Origin: a virus | Lineage: Duplodnaviria; Heunggongvirae; Uroviricota; Caudoviricetes | Virus record (IMG/VR): IMGVR_UViG_3300028591_000093 | Coordinates: 1-16,764 of that record | Length of the DNA stretch: 16,764 nt | Reading direction: 5' to 3' (one strand) | Part shown: positions 1 through 16,764 of the stretch, piece after piece | Position numbering within the stretch: position 1 is the first letter of the stretch | How the letters are laid out: every line of letters starts with the position of its first letter | Program-made: the position numbers and the translations under genes | The notes under the pieces: model-generated | Database searches by the model: none | Seen by the model: the letters and a program-made list of their open reading frames with translations, nothing else | Told to the model about the DNA's origin: nothing

Positions 1-1220
1 CCCACACTCCAGGCAAGAGACTGGCTATACTGGTTGATAGTCCAGAACCAGTAATTAACATCCTCATCTGGGTTTTGTGCATCATAGTGTCTCCAAAGAT
101 TAGATACACTGTTAGGTACTTTGAATAATTTTCTAAGTACTAACTTATGCGCCATAGATGCAAGCATAAACTCACTCATACTAGGTAAGTAAGGTTGCTG
201 AATAATGTTGTCTGCACTCATTTGAATAGAGTCACACCATTGAGCAGCTTGGAACTTACCCCAGTTAAGAATAAGTGCTTGAGTTGCTAAGTTACCATTG
301 TAATCATTGAAGAATGCTTCTCTAGCAGCATGAGTAGAACTCTCACCAGCAACATCTTCATAAGCATGATAACCAGGATTACTCAGTACATCTACAACTG
401 GTAAACACCACTCTTTATATGTAGTATTATTTGGTAATACAACAAAGGATGCATCAGGGTCTACAATTAAGATACCGTCAATGTTTGCTAAGTTCTCTGT
501 ATCAATATCCCAGCTTCTATCCCCAACCCAATCATCAATACTTGGATTATAGAAGGTGTTGTTCTTGATATAGTAGCAAGTCATATCTTTAAGAGTAGTT
601 AAACTATAGTGTCCTTGATATTCATCAGCATCTGGAATCTCATAGTAATCCAAATCATGATATTTCCAATCATCTCCTTCAAATGAATAGTTGATACCTC
701 TATCAGATTTAAAGTTATTAGTAATAGGAAGTAAACAAAGAGTAACATCTTGATTTACTTGTCTATACACTTGTCTCGGTGCAGCACCATAACCACTCTT
801 TTTAGCATAGATTTGATAGATGTCACAAGTAGGAATAGTAATAGTTACTTCTCCAAAAGAGTTAGTAGTATATTCCTTATGATAATTAGTAGCCTCAGTC
901 TCATCCAGAGGTACACCATACTTACCATCAATAGTGTAACAATCTACAATGACTGTTGCATTTGCAGCAACTTTCTTTACCATGTAATCTGGGTTAGAAC
1001 TGTCAACAAGCTCATCAATATGATAAACTTTAATTGTAGCTTTAAACTGGTCAATGTGTCTATGCTTATCATAGTAAGTGGTCATATCCTGCACATCTTT
1101 CAATTGTACATTAGTATTCTTCAAACTATATGTAGGATGTGCTACAGTACCACCAGCAGTAACATCCTGTGTACCATGCAGAAGAATACCTCTTATGTAA
1201 TCAAACAGTTTAATTTTCAT
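1..1220 (-). CDS. Partial (3' end runs off the window) receptor-binding/fibre-type protein, >406 aa, with a C-terminal C-type-lectin-fold / DUF1566-like domain
   Basis: Not in the ORF track. Manual translation from ATG at 1220 is open to the window edge (MKIKLFDYIRG...PYLPSMSEFML...NYWFWTINQYSQSLAWSV). The LPSxxE and W-T-x-x-Q-Y-S-x-x-x-AW-x-V motifs resemble CLec/DUF1566 phage proteins. The start overlaps the end of the upstream gene (1210-1220). Confidence 0.75.
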   Translation of the reverse strand, partial: MKIKLFDYIRGILLHGTQDVTAGGTVAHPTYSLKNTNVQLKDVQDMTTYYDKHRHIDQFKATIKVYHIDELVDSSNPDYMVKKVAANATVIVDCYTIDGKYGVPLDETEATNYHKEYTTNSFGEVTITIPTCDIYQIYAKKSGYGAAPRQVYRQVNQDVTLCLLPITNNFKSDRGINYSFEGDDWKYHDLDYYEIPDADEYQGHYSLTTLKDMTCYYIKNNTFYNPSIDDWVGDRSWDIDTENLANIDGILIVDPDASFVVLPNNTTYKEWCLPVVDVLSNPGYHAYEDVAGESSTHAAREAFFNDYNGNLATQALILNWGKFQAAQWCDSIQMSADNIIQQPYLPSMSEFMLASMAHKLVLRKLFKVPNSVSNLWRHYDAQNPDEDVNYWFWTINQYSQSLAWSV

Positions 1221-1665
1221 TTCTGTATTGTTTATAAATGTTATAAGCTTTAGTTAGTTGTTCAGGAGTAAGAGTAAAAGACCCATTCTCAAGATATGCT
1301 TCAAATATAACTTGCTCATATTTATGCTTGTCTTTTAGATTAGAGAGAAGTGGGGTTAATTGTTTTAAATCATCTAACCCCATCCCAATCTCCTCAAGAA
1401 CAGCAGGGACCAGAAATTTTCCAATTTCTAATCCCATGTTGTACTTGAGATGAAAATTAATGAGCTCTTGTTTACTCTTATTTTTATTCCAGAAAAACAA
1501 ATCAGTTTTATCTAATCTCTAAATCTAGAAGTAATATCTATTAGCTGGAAGATTCTCAAAGATTACATAATCTGTATCATGTGTCTTATAATCTGGAAAA
1601 GAACTAAAAAATACCTGACTACCAACTAAGATTTTATTTTGTGTACTTAAACTAATCTTAGCCAT
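1210..1665 (-). CDS. 151-aa putative minimal nucleotidyltransferase (Pol-beta superfamily-like)
   Basis: Reading TAG (1525-27, 1519-21) as Gln extends ORF 1210..1500 to an ATG at 1665 that overlaps the upstream TAA (TAATG). The N-terminus ILVGSQVFFSSFPDYKTHDTDYVIF fits the hG[GS]x9-13DxD motif. Confidence 0.55.
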
Positions 1666-3194
1666 TATTCTTCAGCTTGTGCATCAGGGTCCTCGCCATA
1701 TTCAACTTTATAAATCCAGTGCTTCTCAACAACTTCTTCTTCATATTGTAAGCTAGTTGGGTCCTCATAGAATGTAGCATACGGGACATAGTTTTCAGCA
1801 GCAGTATCTGGTGTTAAGGAATCAATTAAAATACCCCATCCAGTATCCTCACCTACTTCTTTCATTGCTACATAGTATGTAGTACCATCAATCTCAATTT
1901 CACTGGTTTCTGCATCTGACCTGTAAACATAATTCTCATAGTCATCACCATAGTTACCGTGTTGATAGAATCTAACAACATCTAGTGCCAATTGGTAAAT
2001 AACATTAGTATCTTGTTGGATATTAACCAAATCTTCTTCAGCAATTGACCAACTTGCAGGTTCTAAGTATTGAGTATCATAATCAAGAGCAGGCCATTCA
2101 ACACTGTCTCCCTTATGAACTGTCTTTTGAGCAATCAAGTTAGCATCTGCAACACTATCCTTGTAAAACCTAACTGTTACAAAATCATTTTGTACACCTT
2201 GCACAGCATTGTCTACATATTCCTTAACAGCAGCAGATGTAGGAGCATTAGTACTATCATTAGTAACAGTTCCAGCAAAAGCTTGTACAGTTGCTGATAC
2301 TTTACCATCCGCTTCACTTACTTTCTTAATGTAAGAACCATCTTGACCAACTTCTGCAACATCTAATGCTTGGACTGCTGCTGCGGCAGTACCTGCTGCA
2401 TCATAATTAGAAGCAAGACTGTCTGCATAGTTCTTAGCTGCTGTCTCTGCTGATGCAGCAGAACCAACAGGGTCCCAAGCAGCTTCATCTCCTAACTAAA
2501 CCCAAATATTACTAGAACAGATATATTCCTTAGTTCCAACAATAATAATATCACCATCAGAATAACCAGTGGTATCAGCAGGTAAAGAAGGTACAACTCC
2601 TCTAAAGTGAGTAGCACCTGCCAAAGCAGCAGTAGCTTGCTGTACATGCGCATACACAGCTGCCGCACTTGGAGCAACAGTACCATTCTCTGTTACACTA
2701 GAAGCGAATGCTTTCTTAGTAGCAGAAATCTTACCATCTGTTTCTGAGATTTGCTCAATAAAAGAACCAACTTCCCCCTCATTTGCTACATCAAGTTTGC
2801 CAATTTCTGTAGTTGCTGTGCCAGCAGTATCATAGTTTGGTGCTAAACTGTCAGCATATGCTTTAGCAGCAGCCTCAGCATCATTTGCTTTACCAGAAGC
2901 ATAATCTTTTGTAGCTAATATCTCTAAATCTACACCTGCCTGAGTAGCAATAGGTGTAGTCCATTTTCTTTCACCGTTTTCCAGACCTTCATAGATATAC
3001 ATCTGTTTGTCAGCTATAACATAGACAGACATACCTTCTTCAAGTCTATTAACAGGGATTGTGGCTAAGTCTGCTTTAGTAGCAACACTTCTCCAACCAC
3101 CCTTACCATATTTGGCTTCATGAGTTGCATAAATATCGTCTGTTGTAAATGGAACAACAGCAGCTGCAACATTAGTACCTTGTATGTTTGCCAT
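1665..3194 (-). CDS. 509-aa tail/head fibre-like structural protein with an internal duplication
   Basis: ORFs 2496..3194 and 1665..2204 are in frame and joined through a single TAG (2496-98), ending at TAA. Ala/Thr-rich, with a ~78-aa repeat present twice. The product call is from composition and context. Confidence 0.7.
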
Positions 3195-3198
3195 ATTA

Positions 3199-4701
3199 TT
3201 AAGAAATTACAACAGTTATAGCAGAACCAGTTTGTATATCACCACTTCTGTAAATTCTATATTCTACTTGATAACCATACTCATTAGTAATAATTCTATC
3301 TTCTGTTACCCAGCCAGTATAGGAAAGACCACCAACAGTAGTAGTGATATTACCTAAACTTTTAGGAATCGCATAATAGAAATACTTACCACCAGAGCAG
3401 TTATAAGTTATTGTTTTTGCTTTACTGTTAGACAACTCACTAGAAAGAGTAGCTAAATCAACGCTAGATGCAGTAGCACTTGCTCCCCAGAATCTTCTAT
3501 GCTGGAAAGAAACAGAAGCACTTGCACTTGTAGTATCATTACCAGTAGCCTTAACTACTTTGTTATTTGATACAATTAAACCACTCTTAGGAGCAGTAAA
3601 TGTACAATTATAAGTAACACTTGAAGTTATATTACTTGTTTCTAGCACTGCTTGTGCACCAGCTTCTACATTGATAAATGTCCAAGAACCAGATGCTCCT
3701 GTGGGGGCTTTCTAAGATGCAGAAGGTGTTGGAATACTAGCAGTGCCAATATAATCTACTTTAGCACCATTCTCAACAGAAATACTAGCGTTATGAGAAG
3801 TACTCTTTTCTACATCTTGCTGGTCCTTAATAGTCCAAGTGTGTGCAATAGCAGGAGTTACTAAAGTTAAGTCCCCTTCATAATTACTGCCATCTTTTAA
3901 CATATAAGGAGAGAAATCAATTGCATCAAATTTAGCATCAATTTCAGTCTTATTGTAGTAATTATTAGCAACCTCTTGTGCTAATGCTGTTAAATCAGCA
4001 GACCTTGCAACTGATTCATCAACAGACAAGTTATAACCAATAATTACATTACCTTGCTTGATTTCTTCTACAGTAATACCACCATCTTGTGTAGCACCAA
4101 TAACAGTCTTAGTTAAGGATTGTAATTGTTGAAGCACCCATTCAGTAGTAGCATAAATAGATACATCTGGACCAAGTTTAATCCAAACTCTACCACTCCA
4201 GATATACTCATCATTACCTGCTCTATAGAAATCTCCTTTGTGTAACTGTTCAACTGGAATTGCATCCAGCTCTTCCTTATCTGTTACACAACCTGCAAGA
4301 TGAACATAATCATCATATTTTGCTTCATCTGCTGAAATTTGACCAGACAATCTCTAGTCAAGCTCTTGAATAAGTTGTTCAAGTCTGTTGAATTCACCCT
4401 CACCACCACTTACCTGGTAAAGATAAATAAGGGACCCTTGTAAGAGTTTACACAGGTGCATAAGGTCTTCTTTTGTAAGATGCTTAGCACCATTATCAAA
4501 TCTTATTACCACTTCAGACAGTTGATGTAACAAATCATCTAAAGAAGTAATGCTAGGATATGGTTCTGTGTAAATGTTATCAGCTGTAGTCTACAGGCTT
4601 TCAATATCTCTAACAACAAAACTGTTTGTCAGACCACTTTCCAAACCTCTCTGTGTACTTACAGGGTTAATAAAAATTGGGATTTGTACTTGCCCAGCCA
4701 T
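3199..4701 (-). CDS. 500-aa fibre-like structural protein
   Basis: ATG at 4701 lies 1 nt after the RT TGA. Read-through of TAGs at 4591-93, 4354-56 and 3712-14 joins ORFs 3712..4350 and 3199..3648 in one frame, ending at TAA 3199. The C-terminus is Ser/Thr-rich and beta-strand-like. Confidence 0.7.
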
Positions 4702-4702
4702 A

Positions 4703-6004
4703 TCAGTTATAATAATAGTATTTATGTTTATATTGTATTGTTGTAGCAAATGGGAAATATTCCTAATCCCTTGCTAATCTATCTTTCAAAACTTCAGAAG
4801 AAGAGATAAAGGTATAGTCTTCTGATTCTTGGTCTTCTTCCAAGAAGGAAAATCTAACAACTACTTTATCTACTCCTTTTATAGGAACTATTGCAAATTC
4901 TTTAATTGCAATCTGCTTGTCTACCACATCTACAATACTGAGTCTTTTCTCAATAGGTACACCAAGCCATCTGTCATATCCCTTTTTCTCAGTCAAAGTC
5001 TGGTAGGGCATTTTCTTAAACAATTTAATATTTCTACCATTTAATATCACTTTCCACAAACCAAAAGACCTAGTTAGTTGTAGCCAACCCATATAACTTG
5101 CCATTTGTTGTTTGAATACATGGTCATCAACACCTTGCTTATTAAGTTTATTGGCCTTTTGTTTTATATGCAAATATAAATGTCTCTGGAGTTTAATACT
5201 GTTTTCTGTAAATATACAGCCAACCATTTTAACCCCACTTCTCACTGGAGCAATCCTCACATTATTCTTTACTGTAAGTTTATGACTATCAGCAAATTTA
5301 AGAATTTCTCCAAGAAGGAACTTAGCCATTTCTTTTGTAGGTATAATAATGAGTATATCATCCATATACCTAAAATAATACTTTACTCCAAGAACTTCTT
5401 TAAAATAATGGTCACAGGCAGATAAAAATAAATTAGCAAGATATTGACTACTGCCAACACCAATTGCTAAACCTTTCTCGTTTCTATCTATCAACCTTTC
5501 AAAATACCTTATGATTCTCTTATCTTTAAATGTTTCTCTGACCATTTGCTTCATTATATCATGGTCAATAGACTCATAAAAGTGTCTGAAATCAGTTTTA
5601 AGATAATACCATTCTTGATGAGTATTTACAACTACAGATATTTGTTTAGCTAGTTTATGTAAACCTCTGTATTGTAAACTACCAAAAGAACACCAAGGTA
5701 TTCTATCAAGAAGTTCCCATTTAACCTTTCTTAGGACAGTATGGTCAAGTATTTTATCAGGATAAAGATTTGGGGCATGAATATCTCTTTCTTTGGGCTC
5801 ATAAACCTTAAAAGAAAAGAGTGGGGTTAACTGATAAGTTTCATCTTTAAGTTGTTGCTACAATGTAGCTATTATCTAATCATGTTGTCTCATGCATCTT
5901 TCTACAGCCTTCTAATTCTTACAGACTGCTAAGGCCTCTCTAAAACCATTTTCTAGATTACCCTTTTCATAAACCTCTTCCCATGTAATTTTTGACCTTA
6001 TCAT
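4703..6004 (-). CDS. DGR-type reverse transcriptase, 433 aa, with a ~100-aa C-terminal extension
   Basis: Contains YYFRYMDD (catalytic YxDD) and GLAIGVGSSQYLANL (IGxxxSQ motif typical of DGR RTs), plus N-terminal F.VYEPKER.I and YLKTDFRHFYESIDH motifs. ATG at 6004, TAGs at 5912, 5876, 5858 and 4763 read as Gln, ends at TGA 4703. Adjacent to a TR/VR pair. Confidence 0.95.
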
Positions 6005-6011
6005 AATACTT

Positions 6012-6251
6012 CCCTGTCCTAGTTAGTAAGTCATCTTCAGCAATTGCTTACCAACACCTTACTAATATACAGTGTTCTGTTGTTAAACAACAAGGTTGTG
6101 ACTTAGTTGCACTAAGGAAGTGCTATATTAACAATATGTATTAAGTGACAGTTAGGAGGCAAACCCATTCACATTGTTAGCATTGTTAACATTGTTAGCA
6201 TTGTTAGCACGACCAAGCCCATAGAGGGTTTGCCTACCTAAGTCACAACCT
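6012..6251 (-). ncRNA. Putative structured DGR template RNA (5' flank - TR - spacer)
   Basis: A perfect 14-bp inverted repeat (6093-6106 / 6238-6251) encloses a 10-bp inverted repeat (6157-6166 / 6226-6235) and a small hairpin (6109-6123). The transcript ends are inferred, not seen. Confidence 0.6.
6155..6231 (-). repeat. DGR template repeat (TR), 77 nt
   Basis: Minus strand reads AA ACC CTC TAT GGG CTT GGT CGT GCT AAC AAT GCT AAC AAT GTT AAC AAT GCT AAC AAT GTG AAT GGG TTT GCC TCC. It is intergenic, rich in AAY codons and aligns without gaps to 8229-8305. Confidence 0.95.
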
Positions 6252-6258
6252 ATAAAAA

Positions 6259-6528
6259 TTATTTTCTAATAATCTTATAATAAGTACTAGTAATAGTACC
6301 TCTACCACCCTCACCACCAGGAGTACCTGTTGTTGTATAAGGACCTTCTTTTAAAGAAATACCTGTAGTAATTAAATTGTCAGATTCTGTTGAAGGACCT
6401 ACCAAGTACTAGAAGTATCCAAGAGACATTCCTCTTAAAAAGTCTTCAATTGGGCTGGTAGCATCTTCTCCATTTAAGTACTGAAAGTACCCTAATGAAA
6501 TCCCTCTTAAACACAAATCATCCAACAT
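6259..6528 (-). CDS. 89-aa hypothetical protein with a tandem LRG(I/M)SLGYFQYL repeat, located at the position usually held by avd
   Basis: ATG 6528 lies 2 nt after the target-gene TAA. One TAG (6409-11), TAA at 6259. Missing from the ORF track because of the TAG. Confidence 0.75.
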
Positions 6529-6530
6529 AA

Positions 6531-8663
6531 TTAGTCTCCTTTTGTTACAAATACTGCAAATTGCATGTAAGGTTGGTCAAGAACTGATTTAGAACCAGCT
6601 TCTACTGAACCAGAAGTTGTGTAAGCATATGGATTACCAGAACCTTGTGGTTGGTCATTGATTGAGCTGACATTGATAACACCATTACTCTTCAATACAA
6701 AGTATTCACCTCTAGTTGCAGCAGGTACCCACTGTGCAATAGGAACAACCCTATCAACACCAGATTGAGTAATTTCTGCATCCGTTCTATCATCAAACAT
6801 CACTGCTATTTGATAACTGTTATCAGTTGGGCAAGTAAATGGAAGATTAGCATCTGCCACAAAAGACTCACCTGGCTCAACAGTTCTAGCATTGAATGTT
6901 ATTTGTTTACCATTTTCAGGATTATAATAAGTTACACCAGAAACAAGATTAACTCCTGTACCAACTGTGCTATAAACACTAGACCTACATCTACAATATA
7001 CAACATTCTGTACATTAGGGTCTACTATTTGATAAGCATAGATAGTACCTGTAGCATCTGCACTCATTGTGTAGCTATTATAATTTCCTTCCACAGCTGC
7101 TGCTGTTACAACAAGCATATCATCTGGTTTTCTACCTTCATAATCAGCATATGTTGGATTCCAGTACATTGCTCTGTCAGTATCAGAAGCATTGCTGTCT
7201 TTTCTTAACAAGTATTTACCAGCAGGCAGCGAATCACCAGGACCATACTGAGTGCCAGTATACTTATCTAAGTTCATAGTTGCATGTTTGTCAGTAATAT
7301 GGTCAGATTGAATCGCATATACTGCATTATATTGCAACTGTGAAGGATTAATCTTCATTATTTTTGAATAGATAGCACCTTTATTTTCTTGAGTGTTACT
7401 CTCATCAAGTTTGATGTTACCATTTTCTACCTTGATACAACCTGTAATAGTTCTGTTATCAAAGCACCAAGTGTGACCATCAGAAGCAGTTCTTACACCA
7501 GCACCTGTAGTGCCAAGTACTGCAATGTGTGCAGCAGGTGGAAATGCTCCATAATATAAGTTATTCTGTGGGAATACACAAGCTGCTGTTGGCTTCAAAG
7601 TGAAATCAAGCCCATCTGGGTCATTGAAGATGTCATAAGCAGTTTGGTCAGGGAATACACAAGCATTATCACCAGTTGCAAATTGCATTGACTTAGAAGC
7701 TGTGATAAGATTTAAACTAATCATTGCATTTACTACATCAGAGATATTTGGTGTATCACCTGCAATCTCATTATCAGTAAGTGTGATAGTTAAAGTAACA
7801 TTTTCATCATCATATGCATAACTGAGTGTTTCACCAGTATCCCAGAGAATTTGCCAGTTCTTAGTTACATTACCTGTACCACCAGCTCTTTTCACAAAAT
7901 ATCTACAGTCACTTGCAAAACAACATTGCTGGAAGTAATCTCTTGAGTTTTCATTTGCCTCAACAAAAAAGTCCCACTTTGCATAGACACATCTGTTTCC
8001 ATAATGTCTACCAGTAGCGGCTCCATCTCCTCTTCTTACAATGTTATTTTCTACTCTATCTATTCTTGTATTGTAATAAGTGCAATATGTAGATTGGCTT
8101 CCTGAGTAGTTACTCAATACTACTCCACAACCAGTATTTCTTCTGATGTCAGAGTAGATGATTCTACTGGGGCTGCTGCCTCCAGCACAGCCCCTCCATA
8201 GTTTACTTTGGTGTACTAGGACAGGGCTGGAGGCAAACCCATACACAAAGTCAGCATAGCTAACACTGCCAGCACCGACAGCACGACCAAGCCCATAGAG
8301 GGGTTTATAAGCATCAACTGTTGAAGCATCTGCACCAGCTACTTCCTCACCACCATTCATAAATATCATGTTAGGATAGCCACCAAACCAAGGCAATGTA
8401 TTAACACCCTTACCATCCCAAATAGCAGCACCATAGTAGTCAGCTTTTAGTTGTGTTGAGTGATTACCAACCATAGAATCTGAGAAAATACCTCTCAAGA
8501 TTATAGTACCTGGTTTACTTGTTTGATTATAATATGCTTGAGTAATAGTTCTGTAAGGATTCTGCATAGTACCATCACCATGCTCATCTGAACCAAATCT
8601 ACTATCAACATATTTATTACCATTAGTTGTTCTCCATCTAAAATCTCTATTAGTTGTTGCCAT
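6531..8663 (-). CDS. 710-aa DGR target protein, probably a receptor-binding tail fibre/spike with an N-terminal beta-helix-like start motif
   Basis: Contains the VR at codons ~120-145. The N-terminal YVDSRFGSDEHGDGTMQNPYRTITQAY resembles the cap motif of right-handed parallel beta-helix proteins. It lies in the fibre gene cluster. Confidence 0.8.
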   Translation of the reverse strand: MATTNRDFRWRTTNGNKYVDSRFGSDEHGDGTMQNPYRTITQAYYNQTSKPGTIILRGIFSDSMVGNHSTQLKADYYGAAIWDGKGVNTLPWFGGYPNMIFMNGGEEVAGADASTVDAYKPLYGLGRAVGAGSVSYADFVYGFASSPVLVHQSKLWRGCAGGSSPSRIIYSDIRRNTGCGVVLSNYSGSQSTYCTYYNTRIDRVENNIVRRGDGAATGRHYGNRCVYAKWDFFVEANENSRDYFQQCCFASDCRYFVKRAGGTGNVTKNWQILWDTGETLSYAYDDENVTLTITLTDNEIAGDTPNISDVVNAMISLNLITASKSMQFATGDNACVFPDQTAYDIFNDPDGLDFTLKPTAACVFPQNNLYYGAFPPAAHIAVLGTTGAGVRTASDGHTWCFDNRTITGCIKVENGNIKLDESNTQENKGAIYSKIMKINPSQLQYNAVYAIQSDHITDKHATMNLDKYTGTQYGPGDSLPAGKYLLRKDSNASDTDRAMYWNPTYADYEGRKPDDMLVVTAAAVEGNYNSYTMSADATGTIYAYQIVDPNVQNVVYCRCRSSVYSTVGTGVNLVSGVTYYNPENGKQITFNARTVEPGESFVADANLPFTCPTDNSYQIAVMFDDRTDAEITQSGVDRVVPIAQWVPAATRGEYFVLKSNGVINVSSINDQPQGSGNPYAYTTSGSVEAGSKSVLDQPYMQFAVFVTKGD
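8169..8194 (-). promoter_or_regulatory. Candidate IMH-type GC-rich hairpin 34 nt downstream of the VR, inside the coding sequence
   Basis: GGGGCTGTGCTGGAGGCAGCAGCCCC can fold into a ~10-bp stem with a 2-nt bulge and a 4-nt loop. It uses GC-ending codons that are unusual for this genome. Confidence 0.5.
8229..8305 (-). repeat. DGR variable repeat (VR), encoding KPLYGLGRAVGAGSVSYADFVYGFAS
   Basis: Identical to the TR except at 14 positions, all A in the TR: ACC>CCC, AAC>GTC, AAT>GGT, AAC>GGC, AAT>AGT, AAC>AGC, AAT>TAT, AAC>GAC, AAT>TTT, AAT>TAT. Confidence 0.95.
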
Positions 8664-9106
8664 TATGCCTTAGTTATTTTAATACCAATAGCAGCATTAC
8701 CACTATTAGCTCTAGTTATTGTCCACATTATTACAGCATTTGCAGGAATGCTCTTACTACCTTCCCAAACACCATTTGTTAAAGTAAGACTCACAGATGA
8801 GCCTGAATTTTGTACATAATAAGAAATAGAACTTACATTGTACCCAACAACTTTAGTAAGATTAACTGCACCAAACATATTTACATCAGTAACAGTAACT
8901 ACATCTGTACCAAAGTCTATAGAATAAGTATGATTGCCTTCAATCATTCCACTTATATCCTCTTCTTGTAATCCACCAACAGAATTACCACCAAAGTAGA
9001 CTTTTCCATCATCAGTAATTACAAGAGCATCACTACAATCTTCTGACACTGTTTCAGGGTCATTACCAGTGTAGCTAATAATTCTAGGTCTTTTAATTTC
9101 TTCCAT
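8663..9106 (-). CDS. 147-aa hypothetical protein, probably virion/fibre-associated
   Basis: Clean ATG-TAA ORF. Its TAA overlaps the ATG of the DGR target gene. Confidence 0.7.
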   Translation of the reverse strand: MEEIKRPRIISYTGNDPETVSEDCSDALVITDDGKVYFGGNSVGGLQEEDISGMIEGNHTYSIDFGTDVVTVTDVNMFGAVNLTKVVGYNVSSISYYVQNSGSSVSLTLTNGVWEGSKSIPANAVIMWTITRANSGNAAIGIKITKA

Positions 9107-9123
9107 TAAAAGTAATGTTTAGT

Positions 9124-9153
9124 GGAGGCATGTAGGATTACCTACACACCTCC
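9124..9153 (-). terminator. Strong intergenic RNA stem-loop (terminator-like or processing/stabilising hairpin)
   Basis: Minus strand GGAGGUGUGUAGG-UAAU-CCUACAUGCCUCC forms a 13-bp stem including two G.U pairs. There is no U-tract directly after it, so termination is uncertain. Confidence 0.45.
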
Positions 9154-9167
9154 TTATTTATATTATA

Positions 9168-12100
9168 TTAAGATGCAGCACTTACTATACTTCTTTGTGT
9201 ACCACCATTGATTAACCAACCAATAGTAGGAATATAAGTTCCAACATATTCTGCTACTTGACCAGCAGGAATTGATTCAATGTTTGTCATTAACTTTGCA
9301 GTTACTCCACCTACTGTATAGAAAGTAGGAGTTACAGCACTACCACTAGTATTAGAAATGATAACAGAGCATGTAGTTACTTTACCTGTATTAGATGGTT
9401 GTCCAACATAAACAGTAGAACCTGTAGTTATGTATACTTCATAATTACCATTCATAGGTGATGCTTGAGATAATGTTGTAGTATATCTACCAACATGACC
9501 AATTACATCTTGAATAGATAAATGAGATGAAGTTACTGTACCACCATTATATCCACCTACATTTTTAAGATAGAAGTTATCTCCAGATAAAGTATAACCT
9601 AATGCACTTATTGCATTATTACTATCAATTGCTACATTATCTCCAGAAGTATATTTGGAATCAGATGCAATCTAATAAATCTTTGAACCATCATTATAGA
9701 AAAGCTTACCTGTTATAGGATTGTAACTTTGTCTAGACCCATTGAAATGTGACATTGGGTCATCAGCTTCACCACCCGCTATATAAACTTTTTCATAATC
9801 AGTTCTAGCATTATTTAATTGCCAAACTCCATAGTCGGTACTTGTCTTATCAACATAGAATATAAGATTATCAATTATGATTTTAAGACAGTTAATATAT
9901 AAGTTCTGATATGAGAAAGCATTATACATAAATTTGCTTTCTCCTGCAAACATGCTCCATAAATCAGGAGTTACAGAATTGCCGTTTCTATCATATACTC
10001 CACTTCCTGTTGTATAATCTGGTAATGCTGGCAATGCAATATTAGTCACAGGATTTTTACCTGAACTAGAATAAGGAGTAAAATCATATGTTTTACTCTT
10101 AAAGTCTATCTTTAACTCTGAACCATTGTAATCAGCTCCTTCAATTGTAGAACTTGCTGTACCAAACTTTAATGTAAGAATGCCGTTGTCAAATGAAACA
10201 AGGTTCTTCATTACAGCAGCATTACCAGAAGAATTAGTATCTAATTCAGAAAGATATGGAGCTAACCAATAACCTTTATCCCAATAATTACCAGCATCTT
10301 TTTGACTAAAGTTACCATCAATTATCTTTGAATTATACCATTTCTTAGTAGAAATGTCATATATAGAACCAAATATATAAATAGTACCTGTATAGCTTTC
10401 AGAAGAATCTGAAAGTTGAGCAATAGACATCGAGCTAGAATTGGTTACAACTCCATTGATAAATCCAATATAACCTGAAGCTTCAACTGAACTATTAGCA
10501 GTTACTGTTTCTGTTCCAATAAGTACTCTATTATGTCTGCCAGTAGAGGTTTTGATGTTAGCAATACTATATACATTTACAGTTCCAGATGGGAATGATT
10601 CAGCACCTTGAGAAGAAACTCTACCTGTCCAGTAAATAACTTTAGCAGTATTATTGTTTTGATTAACACTTACCCAAGCAAATTCACTAGGCATTTTAGG
10701 AGAATTCTCTCCAGTACTACCACTAGGATAAATATCATATAAAGTATTTCTATAATAAACATCTTTATTAGTAGAAAAATGTCTTGCAACAGCATTAGAA
10801 TCATTTACAATAGAGAAACCAATTTGGTCTCCAGTTGTATTACCCGAAGTTGTTCCAATTAAAGATTCTACTATATAAGAAGATTTACTATATGGCATCA
10901 AGTAACCATTGAATTCTATAGAATTTACTTTATTCTTAACAGCACCACCATCATTATACCATCTACTATAACCATAACCACTATTAGATACATATGTACC
11001 ATCTCCATATTCTGGCATGTTGTTACCATAACTGTTATTATGGCAAGCAGCCTAGAATTGTTGCCAAGATGCAAGAACATCAGTTTCAATATTATCAGGA
11101 CTCTTACATTGTAAAAAATCTTGTTGATTATCTACAATCAAAGCATCTTGATATAACAATTGATGTGTAGTTAACTCATCATTTTCATCAGAGTAGATTA
11201 ACTCATGTCTAACTGTTGGTACTTCACAATGAATTTTATTATCATCATCAATGTTGATAAGTCTACCTGCTTCATAAGCTCCCTTACCACCACTTCCTTG
11301 AATCTTTAAGTCATAATTAGTACCATCAGTATATTCAATTCTGAAAGTATAATAATCTTCCTCATCAGGCAATCCTGATACTTGATAAATAGTTCTAATA
11401 CTTCTACATCTCAAATCTCCAAGTTCGATAATAGTTTGAAAACTATCAAAAGACATTTGAAGTTTTTGATAGCTCATTGGAGGATAATCCTCATCAGTAA
11501 TGTTGATTAACCTAAATGCTGGAATTAAACCTTCAGCATTAAGTAAATCCCCTTTAGGACCTCTAATGTTACCACCAGTGTTTTGCCAGATTTGAGTAGA
11601 GGTTAATTCATCAATACTGTTTAATCTAAATACATCACCAATATTAGCAAATGTATCATCGGTTCCTGTATAGACAGCATAGTCACCAACATCAGCACCA
11701 GCAATGTTAATTGGGGCAGTAGTTGTAAAGAACACAGGATGACCTTGTTCACCTCTAGGGCCCTGGTCTCCTTGCTCACCTTTTACACCATTTCTTACCT
11801 TGAATGTACCAATATAAGTACTATCTTCAGGAGAATCTCCTTCTTCCCCAACATACATATCATAGAAGTTATAATCACCACTAGTTGTTATAAATGCTGT
11901 TGGGTCTGATTCATTCTCATTATTAAGAACAATGTTGTTTACAGCATATCCTCTTGGCCCTCTAAAACTACCAATCTTATCAAAGCTTGTTGTAGTAGCA
12001 CCATGAATATCAAGGCCATTACCTAAACTGATATAAACATCACCTGTATCAGTATTTAAGTAATAATCACCTCTTGGAATATTCATCACATAAGTACCAT

Positions 12101-12881
12101 TCTCAGTAACTTCAGTACCATAGTGCCAAGTAGAATAAGCAGGTAAAGTAAGATAAACCTCACCTGCATTATCTTCTCCACTTGTAAAGTCAGTATCAAG
12201 AGTACCAATCAATCTATTAGTTCCAGTAATAAAGAACTGTATAGTCTTATTCTCATTAAAATGATTACTAACTTCACAATAATCTGCTACTTCAGCATGA
12301 TATGCTTCTTTAATTTTCTCAATAGTAGTTGGTAAAATACCATGAGGGTCATAGATTGCTTCTTGGTCATTCTCATCAATAATAACAGTTAAGTTATTAT
12401 ATTGAGTATTTTCAGCAGTGTTAATATGTAATTCTGTCCAATGTGCTAAGTTGTAATTCTCAACAAACACATCAGAAATAGACAGATTGTTAATAACACC
12501 AGTTTTGTCAACAGAAGCTTTTCTAGCAGAGCAATAAGCATAAGAAGATTGAGGAATCAAAATTCTAAATACTTCATTGTTGCTATCATATGTATAATAC
12601 AATGTAGATTCTCTACCTCTACTTAAACCTGTAAAGTTGAGATAACTACCATTGATAAAGAGATTAAATACACCATCACAGATAATACCTTGTGCATCAA
12701 AATAAAGTAACTTAATAGTCACAATATCCTGGTCTTGACAAGGTATTGTAATCATTTTAGTCTCACTAGTACCGTTCTGGAAAGGTAAGTATCTCTTATT
12801 TGCTCCTTGAACAAAACCAGTCAAACCAGCAGTACCAACACCAGACTGGTTTTCAAATTCAGTAATATCAGTATTATTCAT
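9168..12881 (-). CDS. ~1237-aa large tail fibre-like protein with collagen-like Gly-X-Y segments
   Basis: ORFs 11052..12905, 9672..11018 and 9168..9455 are in one frame and joined by TAGs at 11052 and 9672. ATG 12881 follows GGGGAGGA and overlaps the upstream stop. GVKGEQGDQGPRGEQG at ~11742-11789, with RGPRG and RGPKGD nearby. Confidence 0.8.
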
Positions 12882-13608
12882 TGAACAGGTCCTCCCCTTC
12901 TTCACTAGTTAACATTTTTAAACTATCTACTTCAGCATCTCCTGTTTGTACAAGAGCCTCTCTATTAAGAGTACCATCACCCCAAGCATGGTTGAGTTGA
13001 ACTTTAAGTGCAGCAGCAATAGCTTCTATACTTGTTTTCTCACCAATAAGGTCAATAAATGGTCTGAATTCTTCTGCTACTGGATGGAAGTAATATGGCT
13101 TACCAGCACTACTGGAGTTACTAGCTTCAGTAGCATTGTTAACATCATAGACTAACCAGTAGTCTTTCTTGTCATTATCTGACATTGTACTAATGTTGGC
13201 TTTAATATTCTCAAACTGAGCCTCAGTTACTAAATGCCATTTTGGTATATAATCACAGTTCACTTCTACATCCAATTTAGTTATTGTTCCAGATTCTGTT
13301 ACATCCCAGTTAAGAGTTCTCCATGTCCAGGATGTTTGAGGTGTATTAACATTAGTTGCAAATACATCTGGAGCAGTTCTTGTTTTTACAAAATCACTGT
13401 TCTTCAAGATGAATTGTTGCTGTAGGTCATGCAATTTTTGCTGAACCTCGGGCTCAACATCTAAAAAGTCAGCCCACTGAGCAACATCACACACTATTAC
13501 CATGAATAATGTCTTCTCCCAAGTACAGTCATGTGTTTGTCCAAGATACCTTAACTTGTCATAATAAGCAAGTATAGTATCATATAATGTCTTACCTACA
13601 GCTATCAT
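12874..13608 (-). CDS. 244-aa hypothetical structural protein (tail/collar region of a crAss-like phage)
   Basis: Clean ORF, coupled to both neighbours. Function inferred from context only. Confidence 0.6.
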   Translation of the reverse strand: MIAVGKTLYDTILAYYDKLRYLGQTHDCTWEKTLFMVIVCDVAQWADFLDVEPEVQQKLHDLQQQFILKNSDFVKTRTAPDVFATNVNTPQTSWTWRTLNWDVTESGTITKLDVEVNCDYIPKWHLVTEAQFENIKANISTMSDNDKKDYWLVYDVNNATEASNSSSAGKPYYFHPVAEEFRPFIDLIGEKTSIEAIAAALKVQLNHAWGDGTLNREALVQTGDAEVDSLKMLTSEEGEDLFNE

Positions 13609-13610
13609 AA

Positions 13611-14195
13611 TTATTTACCACAACCACATCCAATTATTGGTCCTTGACCACCACATCTTCTGTAGTTCTTATTTATAATGTTAAATAGGTTTAGAGCATC
13701 TGCTGTCTGTTTATGTTGCATAGCTTGTAAGTGTGCCCATAACAGTAAGTATTTTACATACAACTCAGAGTTAACACTAGCACATCCATCACAGCTTCCA
13801 GCAGAAGCTAATATTTCTTGCACTAAGTAATCATACACATTATGTACATCTGAACAAAGTGCAACAATCTCTGATGTATCATTAGACTCAAGGCTGTGAG
13901 CACTAAGAGTGATTTGATACATTGCAGGGTCAGTTACATGAAGAGCTTCTTCTAAGTCAATTCTAGTAGCAATAACAGGAGAAGTATTATAAATCTTTTG
14001 TTCATGTTCATCATATTCTCCTGACCAGAATAAAGCATCTGTAAGGTCTACAATATTGACAGTACCATTAGGCAACCAGTATTTTAAAGATACCCCTGTA
14101 AATACAGCATTTACTGTCTTGTTACAGCTAGCAACTATCTCCAAATACTTTCCTTCTTCAGTAACTCTAAATATATCAAGATTGATTGTCACCAT
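13611..14195 (-). CDS. 194-aa crAss-like structural protein with a C-terminal Cys motif (tail hub/collar-type, tentative)
   Basis: The N-terminal FRVTEEGKYLEI and C-terminal RRCGGQGPIIGCGCGK resemble, from memory, conserved crAss-like virion proteins. Not verified by search. Confidence 0.5.
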   Translation of the reverse strand: MVTINLDIFRVTEEGKYLEIVASCNKTVNAVFTGVSLKYWLPNGTVNIVDLTDALFWSGEYDEHEQKIYNTSPVIATRIDLEEALHVTDPAMYQITLSAHSLESNDTSEIVALCSDVHNVYDYLVQEILASAGSCDGCASVNSELYVKYLLLWAHLQAMQHKQTADALNLFNIINKNYRRCGGQGPIIGCGCGK

Positions 14196-14454
14196 CTGGT
14201 TGTTTAGTAATTTTAGCAGTTAAACCTAATGCAGCACAGAATACAATTATATATCCACAAGCTGTGAATAATAGAGGGCTAACTCCATAAGTTGCTTGTA
14301 AATCAAATAACTTATCTGCCCCTAGAACTGCTACCGCTGCTGTACCCAGTTCTATTGCAAACTTCAGTATTTTCTGGAAGAAGGGAGGTGATTTCTTAGA
14401 CCACCTCTCCTTTGCTTCTTTCCAGAAATTATTTTTTTCTGTTGTTAATGGCAT
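14176..14454 (-). CDS. ~92-aa holin-like membrane protein with two hydrophobic segments
   Basis: Hydrophobic stretches ILKFAIELGTAAVAVLGA and LLFTACGYIIVFCAALGLTA, with a basic N-terminus. The likely start is ATG 14454, overlapping the end of the portal gene. Confidence 0.55.
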   Translation of the reverse strand: MPLTTEKNNFWKEAKERWSKKSPPFFQKILKFAIELGTAAVAVLGADKLFDLQATYGVSPLLFTACGYIIVFCAALGLTAKITKQPDGDNQS

Positions 14455-16624
14455 CGTTGTTAGGATTTGTATCAAGTAATTGTAATCTTTCTAATTGATT
14501 TCTTTCTCTAATAAGTTGATTCTCCTCTTCCTTGAGCTTAGCTGTTTGTTCTGCATCAAATCTCTTGATAGCAAGACCTTCAGTAACTTCATACTCATCA
14601 ATTTGGAGTTTCTTCTCATTGAGTTGACCAAGCTTATTGATTGCTTGATTAAGCTGCTTTTGCAACTGTTGTTGTTGTTTTTGAGCTTCTTCTAGAGCTT
14701 GTGTAAGTTGTTGTACTTGATTGTTCTCCAGTTTCTTTTGTCTGATAGCTTCCATAACAGCCTCTTTCATTTCTGTAGTAGACTTGGAAGTAGTAACGAT
14801 AACAAGTAACTCTGGGTCAACTTGGCTAGCTTGAGACAACTGAATAGCTACTTGTCTAAGCAAGTCTTGCTGTTCAATCAATTCAGCTGTATCAACAACA
14901 TGTACATCATAACTAGTAGAAGTATAATGTTCAGGAAGTACATCAAGATAGTATTTCTGATTACCAAGAACAAATTCTCCTTTAAGACCTTTCTTGTAAA
15001 CAATCTTAGAAATGTCTATGCAATCAGTAAGTACTTCTGATGTTACAGTATCCATTGCCTGGAAATACGGCTTGGTAATAACATAAGATTGCTGCATACC
15101 TTTTTCTACATTGGCTACAGCATCTCTTTGTTGAATACCGCCTAATCTCTCTCTAAATACACCTGTAATAGAAGAACATGTCATCTCAACTCTTTCCAAA
15201 GCTAAGTCAATAGCCTGGATTGCATTAAGAGATAATGTATCATCAAAACCATTAACAAGTGTATTCATGTTCTCACCACCTTCTTGTGCTGAGTTCATAA
15301 GAGAAATACCTAACTTTCTCCAACCCCAGTACTTAATCAGTCTTTCATCAAACTCAGTACCAAGTTCTGCTGGTAACTGTGCTACATCAACATGTGCACC
15401 CTTAACACCAGACAAAGCAATATAGTTATCTCTTAAATAATGCAAGAGATTAAACTTATCTTGTAAAGTAGCAGTGGCCAAAATAAGAGAATATGGGATA
15501 CCAGTTCTATCTGTAAAATACAGACCATTCAAAGCAAGTCTTGCTTCTGTTGGTTCATCAATATCTCTTACCATATCATCATCTCTACCAAATAAGATGT
15601 AAATGTTCTCACCAATTCTAGTTACATTGTATCTGTAAGCTTTGGTATCATCTCCTTCTCCTTCAGTATCAATCCACTCTACTTCATACACAGGAATAAG
15701 GTCTCTAACAATATCAGAAACTTCTTCATGTGTATTATCAAAACCTCCTGTATAAGAATCCCAGAGACCATCAGACAGATTTACACCAATTCTACCGTTG
15801 ATGGCAGCTAACAAAGTAGCATCATTATATCTGTGATGCATTTGTTCATTGATTTTATCTCTATCTTCTTTAGAAAGATACTTACCATATTTCATGATAA
15901 TCTCTCTCTTGGTCATCCATTTTCTAACTACATCTCTGTAGCCATTCTTAATATACTTACTTTTTGGGTCTCTTTCAATGAAAGTATTAAGAGGGTCAGA
16001 AACTTCAAGTCTAAAACCATTACCAGATTTAGTCTTTACTACTTTATAATGTCCCTCACCACCAACAAGCAAGTCTGTCAGGAGTTCTGTTAATTGATTC
16101 TTTAAATCTATATCTCTAGAATTGATAGCATACTGAACAATTGTCTATGCAGCCATCTCATAATTAGAGATATAATTTCTATTTACAGAATCCTCAACTT
16201 CTTTAAGTTCTTGGTCAATTACCTCATCCTGTACAGGGTCTTGAGGGTCTTTGCCCATTATTAGTCTGTAAATATAATTTTCAAGCTTAGAAATAGCAAG
16301 TTGATGTATCTTGTTCTCCACTTCTAATTGCTTGTCTCTGTAAATATTAGAAAGAGTTTTAGAATCCTTACAAGAAATTTTAGGTTGAAGCTTCTGAGTA
16401 AGATACTCTCCAACGATAGCATCAATATGCTTTCTAGTCAGAGGTACAAATTCTACAGAGGTTGGATTCTCAACACCATAACCTTTTTCATAAGCCTCAT
16501 ACTGTTTTTTGTCAAGAATTCCATGATAGTAGTTATAAGCTTTGTAAAGAGATTTTCTCTCAATAACTAACTCAGTAATAGCACTATCACACTCTTTCAT
16601 TAAGTATTCTTTGTCTTTACTCAT
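14429..16624 (-). CDS. Portal protein, crAss-like, 731 aa
   Basis: ORFs 16145..16624 and 14429..16072 are joined through TAG 16145 (EMAA-Q-TIVQY). Motifs YNYYHG..D..QY, FVPLTRKHIDAIVGEY, ITGVFRERLGGIQQRDAVANV and the coiled-coil Q-rich C-terminus match crAss-like portals as I recall them. Confidence 0.85.
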
Positions 16625-16764
16625 CTCTTATAAGTAATTTACAATTGTCTTGCTCATAGAAACCACCTTGAGGATGTAACTTAACATTCTTACTGATGAT
16701 TTCATTGAGCTTAGACTTCTTTAACTAATTTGTTATAAATTCTAAAAACTCTTCATCGTTAGAG
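16617..16764 (-). CDS. 3' end of a small hypothetical gene upstream of the portal
   Basis: Open frame SNDEEFLEFITN(Q=TAG)LKKSK...LLIRDE ending at TAA 16617, overlapping the portal ATG. Confidence 0.6.

Follow-up and report, generated by a model that had tools for sequence, protein, structure and literature searches.

A diversity-generating retroelement of a crAss-like gut phage with an N-terminal variable repeat in a predicted parallel beta-helix domain

Introduction

The working rule in the field is that hypervariation by diversity-generating retroelements (DGRs) needs a C-type lectin (CLec) fold and a variable repeat (VR) at the C-terminus of the target protein. In the survey of Roux et al. 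2021 (PMC8144416), the VRs were found at the C-termini and in systematic association with the CLec fold, and the C-terminal position was explained by cis elements that can be intergenic. Here, we analysed a DGR in a stretch of 16,764 nucleotides (the window), positions 1 to 16,764 of the IMG/VR virus record IMGVR_UViG_3300028591_000093. The cassette comprises a target gene, a template repeat (TR) and the gene of a reverse transcriptase (RT), and its target family appears to contradict both parts of the rule.

Exceptions to the C-terminal position have been described. In the list of Wu et al. 2018 (PMC5758913), three VRs are N-terminal and about 20 are internal, most of them in the immunoglobulin-like (Ig) classes Ig1 and Ig2, and in Supplementary Note 7 of Roux et al. 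2021 (PMC8144416) 17 of 45 Ig1/Ig2 targets have an N-terminal VR that is followed by more than 250 residues. The same authors re-read the Ig1/Ig2 classes as an uncharacterised non-Ig VR domain. Since N-terminal and internal VRs are recorded as rare exceptions (PMC5758913; PMC8144416), the position of a VR alone is not new. In our full-text search of the literature that combined DGRs with beta-helices, a DGR target with a beta-helix was not described in any paper.

Two described systems are close to the cassette analysed here. One is the BPP-1 DGR with the gene order mtd-avd-TR-brt, considered together with the CLec proteins Mtd, TvpA and TaqVP. The other is found in the Zeta crAss-like phages (PMC12386605, 2025), where Avd is missing from 16 of the 18 published DGRs and amber codons occur in the RT gene of seven.

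Results and discussion

A template and a variable repeat that differ at adenines

The features of the cassette are compiled in Table 1. A direct repeat of 77 nt with 82% identity is present in the window, with one copy inside the target gene and the other downstream of it. The copies differ at 14 of the 77 bases, and each of the 14 mismatches falls on a + strand T of the downstream copy, which is an adenine of the coding strand. As 22 of the 77 bases of this copy are adenines, the chance of finding 14 out of 14 mismatches on A is 0.286^14, about 2e-8. By this mismatch pattern, the copies at 6155 and 8229 are identified as the TR and the VR of a DGR. The TR has a single matching VR in the 169-kb genome and is itself the sole other copy of the sequence.

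Table 1. Coordinates of the DGR cassette and of the parts of its target protein (positions in the window)
Feature	Coordinates	Strand	Remarks
DGR target gene	6531..8663	-	710 aa; from the list of open reading frames; without in-frame TAG, stop codon TAA
VR	8229..8305	-	residues 120-145 of the target; TR/VR mismatches 14/14 at TR adenines
TR	6155..6231	-	non-coding; 9-nt units (GCT or GTT) AAC AAT, x4
DGR reverse transcriptase	4703..6004	-	one continuous frame; GVGSSQ, YMDD; phrog_1423, PF00078
TR-RT spacer	6005..6154	-	150 nt; hairpin 6077-6093 then AACAC (6072-6093 together); 12-mer 6012-6023
Small conserved open reading frame	6259..6528	-	89 aa, one in-frame TAG; internal repeat LRG[IM]SLGYFQY; usual avd position
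Predicted right-handed parallel beta-helix domain, residues 14-370	7554..8624	-	AF2 model and structure searches; holds the VR
N-terminal cap motif, residues 17-45	8529..8615	-	YVDS..GSD..GDGT..NPY.TI..AY; profile matches 9rkv_M, 8fqc_P1
C-terminal half, residues 373-710	6534..7547	-	conserved in the family, beta-rich

The initial annotation had placed the VR at about codons 120-145 of 710 with about 565 residues after it, and the in-frame reading bore this out. The TR would read (K)TLYGLGRA-NN-A-NN-V-NN-A-NN-V-N-GFAS, with AAC or AAT as the variable codons. Diversified in the VR are the 11 codons 121, 123, 129, 130, 132, 133, 135, 136, 138, 139 and 141. TR and VR have in common a GC-rich end of 12 nt, GGGTTTGCCTCC. 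To our knowledge, the three-residue period (small hydrophobic, x, x) of the VR and the corresponding 9-nt period of the TR have no counterpart in a CLec VR, although we made no search for one.

The cassette resembles the BPP-1 DGR and the CLec proteins Mtd, TvpA and TaqVP in its target-TR-RT order, the adenine-specific mutagenesis, the AAY variable codons, the constant G/C-rich 3' end of TR and VR, the invariant small residues among the variable ones and the putative phage tail-type target. Unlike in these systems, the VR occupies residues 120-145 of 710 and not the last ~45, and the domain continues to about residue 370. The scaffold is a predicted beta-helix, no Avd was found, the TAG codons in the RT are recoded, and the cis elements 3' of the VR would lie inside the coding sequence. 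Because 1.7 kb of coding sequence are located downstream of the VR, the gene itself must carry the homing signals.

Diversification in natural populations

The activity of the DGR was assessed by comparing independent public assemblies. The contig L022 (ENA ERZ27256846, 169,149 bp) differed from the window at 13 positions over 16,655 aligned nucleotides. Eleven of the 13 differences were inside the 77-nt VR, and all 11 were at columns where the TR has an adenine. An identity of 16,642/16,655 and yet 11 differences at VR adenine sites indicate very recent mutagenesis.

We then compared 23 full-length proteins that originate from different samples and belong to the 90%-identity clusters of the target and of its 75%-identical relative (>=75-98% identity). 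A distinct VR was found in each of these 23 near-identical proteins. The variation fell exactly on the AAY, ACC and TAT codons of the TR, and most of the nine Asn-templated codons had an entropy of 2.0-2.8 bits, compared with at most 1.8 bits elsewhere. Thr121 (ACC) was changed to P or A and Tyr123 (TAT) to C, S or F, as predicted for the mutagenesis of adenines, and the interleaved residues A128, A131, V134, A137, V140 and G142 were invariant or nearly so. The 204 variable-site residues were dominated by Y, G, S, N, H, A and D, with no Pro and no Cys among them (0/204). Since each of these two accounts for 1/16 of the NNY codons, their absence points to selection on a functional protein. The accessible repertoire amounts to about 15^9 x 16, roughly 6e11 peptides.

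Two of the near-identical proteins, P0174 and P0186, have in-frame deletions of one and three codons inside the VR, which may be due to slippage along the TR with its 9-nt period.

Metagenome contigs and predicted proteins often ended or turned chimeric exactly at the VR (P0079-P0095; L009, L019-L021), and some of the broken ones ran from the VR into the TR and the spacer. These breaks and chimeras are the assembly signature of VR heterogeneity within a sample. They also inflate the counts of short homologues: apparent free-standing VR domains of 160-230 residues matched only up to the VR and continued out of frame or with TR-derived sequence, and were rejected as assembly breaks or chimeras.

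We conclude from these comparisons that the DGR is active and that diversification is ongoing in natural populations. A frozen relic, which the initial annotation had allowed for, does not agree with the comparison to L022 and the 23 distinct VRs.

The variable repeat lies between rungs of a predicted beta-helix

The initial annotation had pointed to an N-terminal motif of the beta-helix type and had proposed a scaffold other than CLec, to be checked by structure prediction and a fold search. The motif is present at residues 17-45, KYVDSRFGSDEHGDGTMQNPYRTITQAYY. A profile of the family matched the beta-helix starts of the phage 7-7-1 tail fibre 9rkv_M (E 1e-3) and of the tailspike gp124 8fqc (8fqc_P1; E 1e-3). 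By profile, this cap motif was the sole detectable part of the beta-helix, and its stretch matched repeatedly in giant multi-beta-helix proteins of the representative library. No Pfam (cut-off E<=0.1) or PHROG family was found for the target, including the beta-helix models PF13229, PF07602 and PF22842.

The domain of residues 1-372 was modelled with AlphaFold2 (AF2) from an alignment of 60 sequences. The model reached a predicted local distance difference test score (pLDDT) of 88.8 and a predicted template modelling score of 0.89, with all five models at pLDDT 86.9-88.8. The full-length protein, with 19 sequences, was modelled at pLDDT 65.9. The domain model was then searched with VIA-align against 48,161 chains, and the following statements cover the 50 matches listed. 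All 50 were right-handed parallel beta-helix proteins with Z 7.2-11.2 over the model residues 14-367, and 33 chains had Z>=8. The alignments extended to both sides of the VR with 200-240 aligned residues. The best match was the rhamnogalacturonan lyase 5olq_A (Z 11.2, 243 aa, root-mean-square deviation 4.9), and others were Pel9A, pectin methylesterases, PL6 lyases and the phage tailspikes 6c72, 7eea, 5w6h and 7xyc. A search of the ESM-Atlas gave template modelling scores (TM) of 0.51-0.65 to clusters with Beta_helix, DUF1565 or Pel9A-like domains.

In the predicted model, the VR sits between the rung strands 99-102 and 148-151. The about 45 residues between these rungs are too short for a CLec or an Ig domain, so the VR is not placed in an ordinary domain of either kind. 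The VR itself forms short helical turns (131-135 and 137-139) followed by a strand (140-143). Homologues or variants with deletions inside the VR segment were observed (P0014, P0174, P0186), a tolerance that would be expected of an excursion at the surface more than of a rung in the core. A prediction of a three-copy complex of residues 1-330 had a score of 0.00 and gave no verdict, neither for nor against trimerisation.

By the model and the structure searches, the domain that bears the VR is shown to be a right-handed parallel beta-helix of the pectate-lyase/tailspike kind, and the proposal of a scaffold other than CLec was upheld. The target has in common with the beta-helix tailspikes and fibres and the DUF1565/Pel9A-like proteins (9rkv, 6c72, 7eea, 1ru4, 5olq) the cap motif and the stacked right-handed rungs, with Z 10-11 over ~230-240 residues. 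In contrast to the target, none of these is known as a DGR target, and only the target family has the (A/V)-x-x excursion between its rungs 2 and 3. The Ig1/Ig2 targets (Wu 2018; PC_00003/PC_00008 of Roux 2021) are likewise phage tail proteins with a VR domain that is not recognisable as CLec. In those, however, Roux et al. see a C-terminal VR domain extended by Ig-like modules, whereas here the predicted beta-helix runs more than 220 residues past the VR.

Our reading of the locus, to which we give a probability of roughly 0.85, is an active, Avd-less DGR of a ~169-kb crAss-like gut phage that rewrites a segment running from rung to rung near the N-terminus of a tailspike-like protein with a parallel beta-helix. 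The adjacent RT would transcribe an RNA of TR and spacer into cDNA, with errors specific to adenines, and this mutated cDNA would replace the VR of the target gene. The nine Asn-templated codons, Thr121 and Tyr123 would be re-randomised in this process. The VR would form an excursion of 26 residues, with (A/V)-x-x repeated, between the second and third rungs of the N-terminal beta-helix. In this arrangement the segment would be held on the helix by A128, A131, V134, A137, V140 and G142, leaving the x positions on display. The locus would then provide DGR mutagenesis, whether natural or engineered, with a second display scaffold of simple structure, and serve as a test case for target recognition without intergenic cis elements or Avd.

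Several observations weigh against this reading. Avd (PF05635) had no match at E<=1 in the six frames of the 169-kb genome, in a search that did not cover the HRDC-type accessory, and no GenBank phage had a tblastn match to the target. A hairpin after the VR was not supported across the loci by a perfect-stem scan against gene-internal controls, which misses wobble pairs (combined p 0.92). The matches of the domain model in the Foldseek search of the PDB were weak (E >= 0.02, TM 0.2-0.33), and the pLDDT of the model was lower in and before the VR, with 56 at residues 111-120 and 77-81 at 121-140. Finally, in the Zeta crAss-like phages every modelled DGR target has its VR in a C-terminal CLec domain (PMC12386605), unlike the N-terminal VR in a predicted beta-helix described here.

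The last three points would fit a VR in a cryptic, divergent CLec-like or other known DGR scaffold, with the beta-helix model as an AlphaFold artefact driven by the cap motif. New CLec variants have been missed repeatedly by sequence detection (PMC8144416; PMC5758913), and the pLDDT dip lies just before the VR. Such a scaffold is, however, highly improbable in view of the consistent pLDDT of the five models, the beta-helix alignment on both sides of the VR and the agreement of two independent searches. The short distance between the flanking rung strands and the position of the VR 565 residues from the C-terminus speak against it as well. Over all Foldseek searches (full-length and domain models against the PDB, and BFVD) the E-values were >= 3.8e-4 and mostly above 1e-3 with TM 0.1-0.33, and the better rows were nearly all beta-helix proteins. 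Because these matches were weak, the fold was called from VIA-align and the Atlas. The matches that the PDB, Atlas and BFVD searches listed included no C-type lectin chain, an absence that excludes no fold.

The reverse transcriptase and TAG recoding

The window corresponds to bases 1-16764 of a phage genome of 169,151 bp. It has a GC content of 35%, and its long open reading frames (ORFs) are all on the minus strand. The closest named relatives of the portal protein are from crAss-like phages (21-26% identity), and the host of the DGR cassette is a large (~169-kb) crAss-like gut phage. The genome is similar to those of the Zeta crAss-like phages (PMC12386605), which have about 160-190 kb, about 34% GC, more than 20 tRNAs and a CTA suppressor tRNA. 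The likeness extends to the cassettes, which in those phages also lie in the structural block, mostly lack Avd and encode an RT of about 414 aa with amber codons in its gene.

The RT frame contains three in-frame TAG codons at 5912-5914, 5876-5878 and 5858-5860, within 18 codons and near the N-terminus. Its product has 413 residues up to the TAG at 4763-4765 and 433 residues when that TAG is also read. With TAG as a sense codon, a single uninterrupted match (2.9e-72) to the reverse transcriptase family phrog_1423 spanned the TAGs, and PF00078 matched with 3.5e-12. The nearest RTs in GenBank phages have at most 34% identity.

Several lines of evidence bear on the reading of TAG. Among the 24 tRNAs encoded in the genome, one has the anticodon CTA (genome 30636-30723). 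In the contig L023, which is 97-98% identical to the window, the window TAGs at 16147 (16145-16147) and 2498 (2496-2498) are replaced by CAG and CAA. The portal match increased from 108.5 to 148.7 bits once the upstream TAG was read through. In the small ORF, the two copies of the internal repeat differ by synonymous changes and by CAG versus TAG (TAG at 6406-6408). Because of the tRNA, the codon replacements in L023, the gain of the portal match and the CAG/TAG pair of the small ORF, we read TAG as a codon that this phage decodes as glutamine. The RT is therefore most likely intact, and it would be translated only when a TAG-reading suppressor tRNA is present.

If read with the standard code, the RT frame contains three stops (TAG) within 18 codons, and this, together with the failure to find PF05635 in the 169-kb contig, would agree with a relic, in which the RT is broken and the VR differences stem from earlier activity or from recombination. 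We regard a relic as very improbable. The phage encodes the tRNA-CTA, and TAG aligns with Gln codons in its close relative. The three TAGs of the RT are unchanged in L022 and L023 and are thus kept although 2-3% of the other sites differ between the genomes; a pseudogene would gain other lesions as well. The 11 adenine-site differences in the VR between otherwise nearly identical assemblies, described above, also speak against it. As for the accessory protein, Avd is not strictly defining for a DGR, because it is absent in 16/18 of the published Zeta crAss DGRs, seven of which have amber codons in the RT (PMC12386605).

A family of related loci

A word-based search and then an exhaustive profile search yielded 19 full-length homologues of the target and then 359 relatives. 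The relatives with E<=1e-30 represent at least 86 clusters at 50% identity in the representative library, and about 55 are full length. The family has the conserved motif aGvGRAxxAxxVGxAxxVxGvaGS, where x is variable.

From 21 related viral contigs, the 12 loci with a significant TR match were scored. In all 12, the VR was located at codons ~110-162 of 610-720 and the TR 224-366 nt after the stop codon, and the TR/VR mismatches were at adenines with zero or one exception in each locus. RT homologues follow the TR in the related loci, some of them with in-frame stops. Some members of the family have deletions or degenerate sequence at the VR. The comparison of these sequences shows that the arrangement of an N-terminal VR and a downstream TR is conserved family-wide.

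In Supplementary Data 5 of Roux et al. 2021 (PMC8144416), a target from the metagenome 3300003523, which is the source of our locus L004, is listed with a VR position of 0.2, an RT two genes downstream, the cluster PC_00083 and the type "Rare". The rare target clusters were explicitly left unanalysed in that survey. Because this entry matches the source of L004 and such clusters were not analysed, the target family is probably PC_00083, catalogued but never characterised. Target clusters that large surveys put aside as rare can thus hold real new biology.

The spacer and the small open reading frame

The spacer hairpin that is followed by (G/A)AACA was found in each of the 12 loci compared, ~9 of them flagged by a script and 3 identified by eye, at a distance of 25-65 nt downstream of the TR. 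Its stems covary (TTGTTG/CAACAG, TTGCCG/CGGCAG, CGCC/GGCG and TTGCTG/CAGCAA), and the hairpin is likely to be a functional element of the DGR RNA. The 12-mer in the spacer is exactly complementary to 8215-8226, starting 3 nt after the VR, and 0/100 shuffles reached 12 nt. As a rule for the family this complementarity was not established, with >=9 nt at the same place only in L003 and L016. The flank 3' of the VR in the window folds with a z of -2.5.

The small ORF is located between target and TR, with its ATG next to the stop codon of the target. A syntenic ORF of 67-89 aa with two or three 'h-S-L/V-G' repeats was present in 13/13 loci examined. The small ORF matched no known family and had no homologues outside its own cluster. 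It could encode a new DGR accessory or a fibre chaperone.

The target protein

The target gene is flanked on one side by portal and tail-fibre-like genes, and additional ORFs of the virion or structural type follow on the other. The target would be a virion tailspike or receptor-binding protein, and its variable residues are presumably solvent-exposed and in contact with a ligand of the host surface. The DGR could also be active on a beta-helix and diversify the specificity of an enzyme, packaged or secreted, or of an anti-defence protein instead of a receptor-binding tailspike, and the model indeed has no N-terminal tail-attachment domain ahead of the beta-helix. This we consider unlikely, since the gene is located in the structural block described above, phage tail fibres and tailspikes are among its closest matches by profile and by fold, and those targets of phage DGRs that have been characterised to date are tail proteins (PMC8144416).

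The residues D75, D83, R127 and D252 of the target are invariant. A speculative extension, which we think has some chance but is doubtful, takes the predicted beta-helix as an active depolymerase tailspike. The diversified excursion with the invariant Arg127 would line a carbohydrate groove by D75, D83 and D252, and the DGR would evolve an enzyme cleft without Avd, perhaps by means of the small repeat protein and the covarying spacer hairpin.

The C-terminal half was modelled at pLDDT 45-80 in the full-length model. Its 338 residues had no sequence-profile match in the PDB, and the ESM-Atlas gave weak cupin-like rows with TM below 0.3.

Other TAG-containing genes of the window

In-frame fusion across TAG without any other stop was observed for the portal gene, the tail fibre at 9168-12905, 1665-3194 and 3199-4749. 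At 9168-12905 (-), the read-through of TAG merges three ORFs into a tail-fibre-like protein of 1,245 aa. This protein has a weak match to a PHROG tail fibre and a collagen-like stretch, and its orthologue in L023 has a faint YadA_head match. The middle of 9168-12905 (about 9300-11500) is the most divergent region between the window phage and L023.

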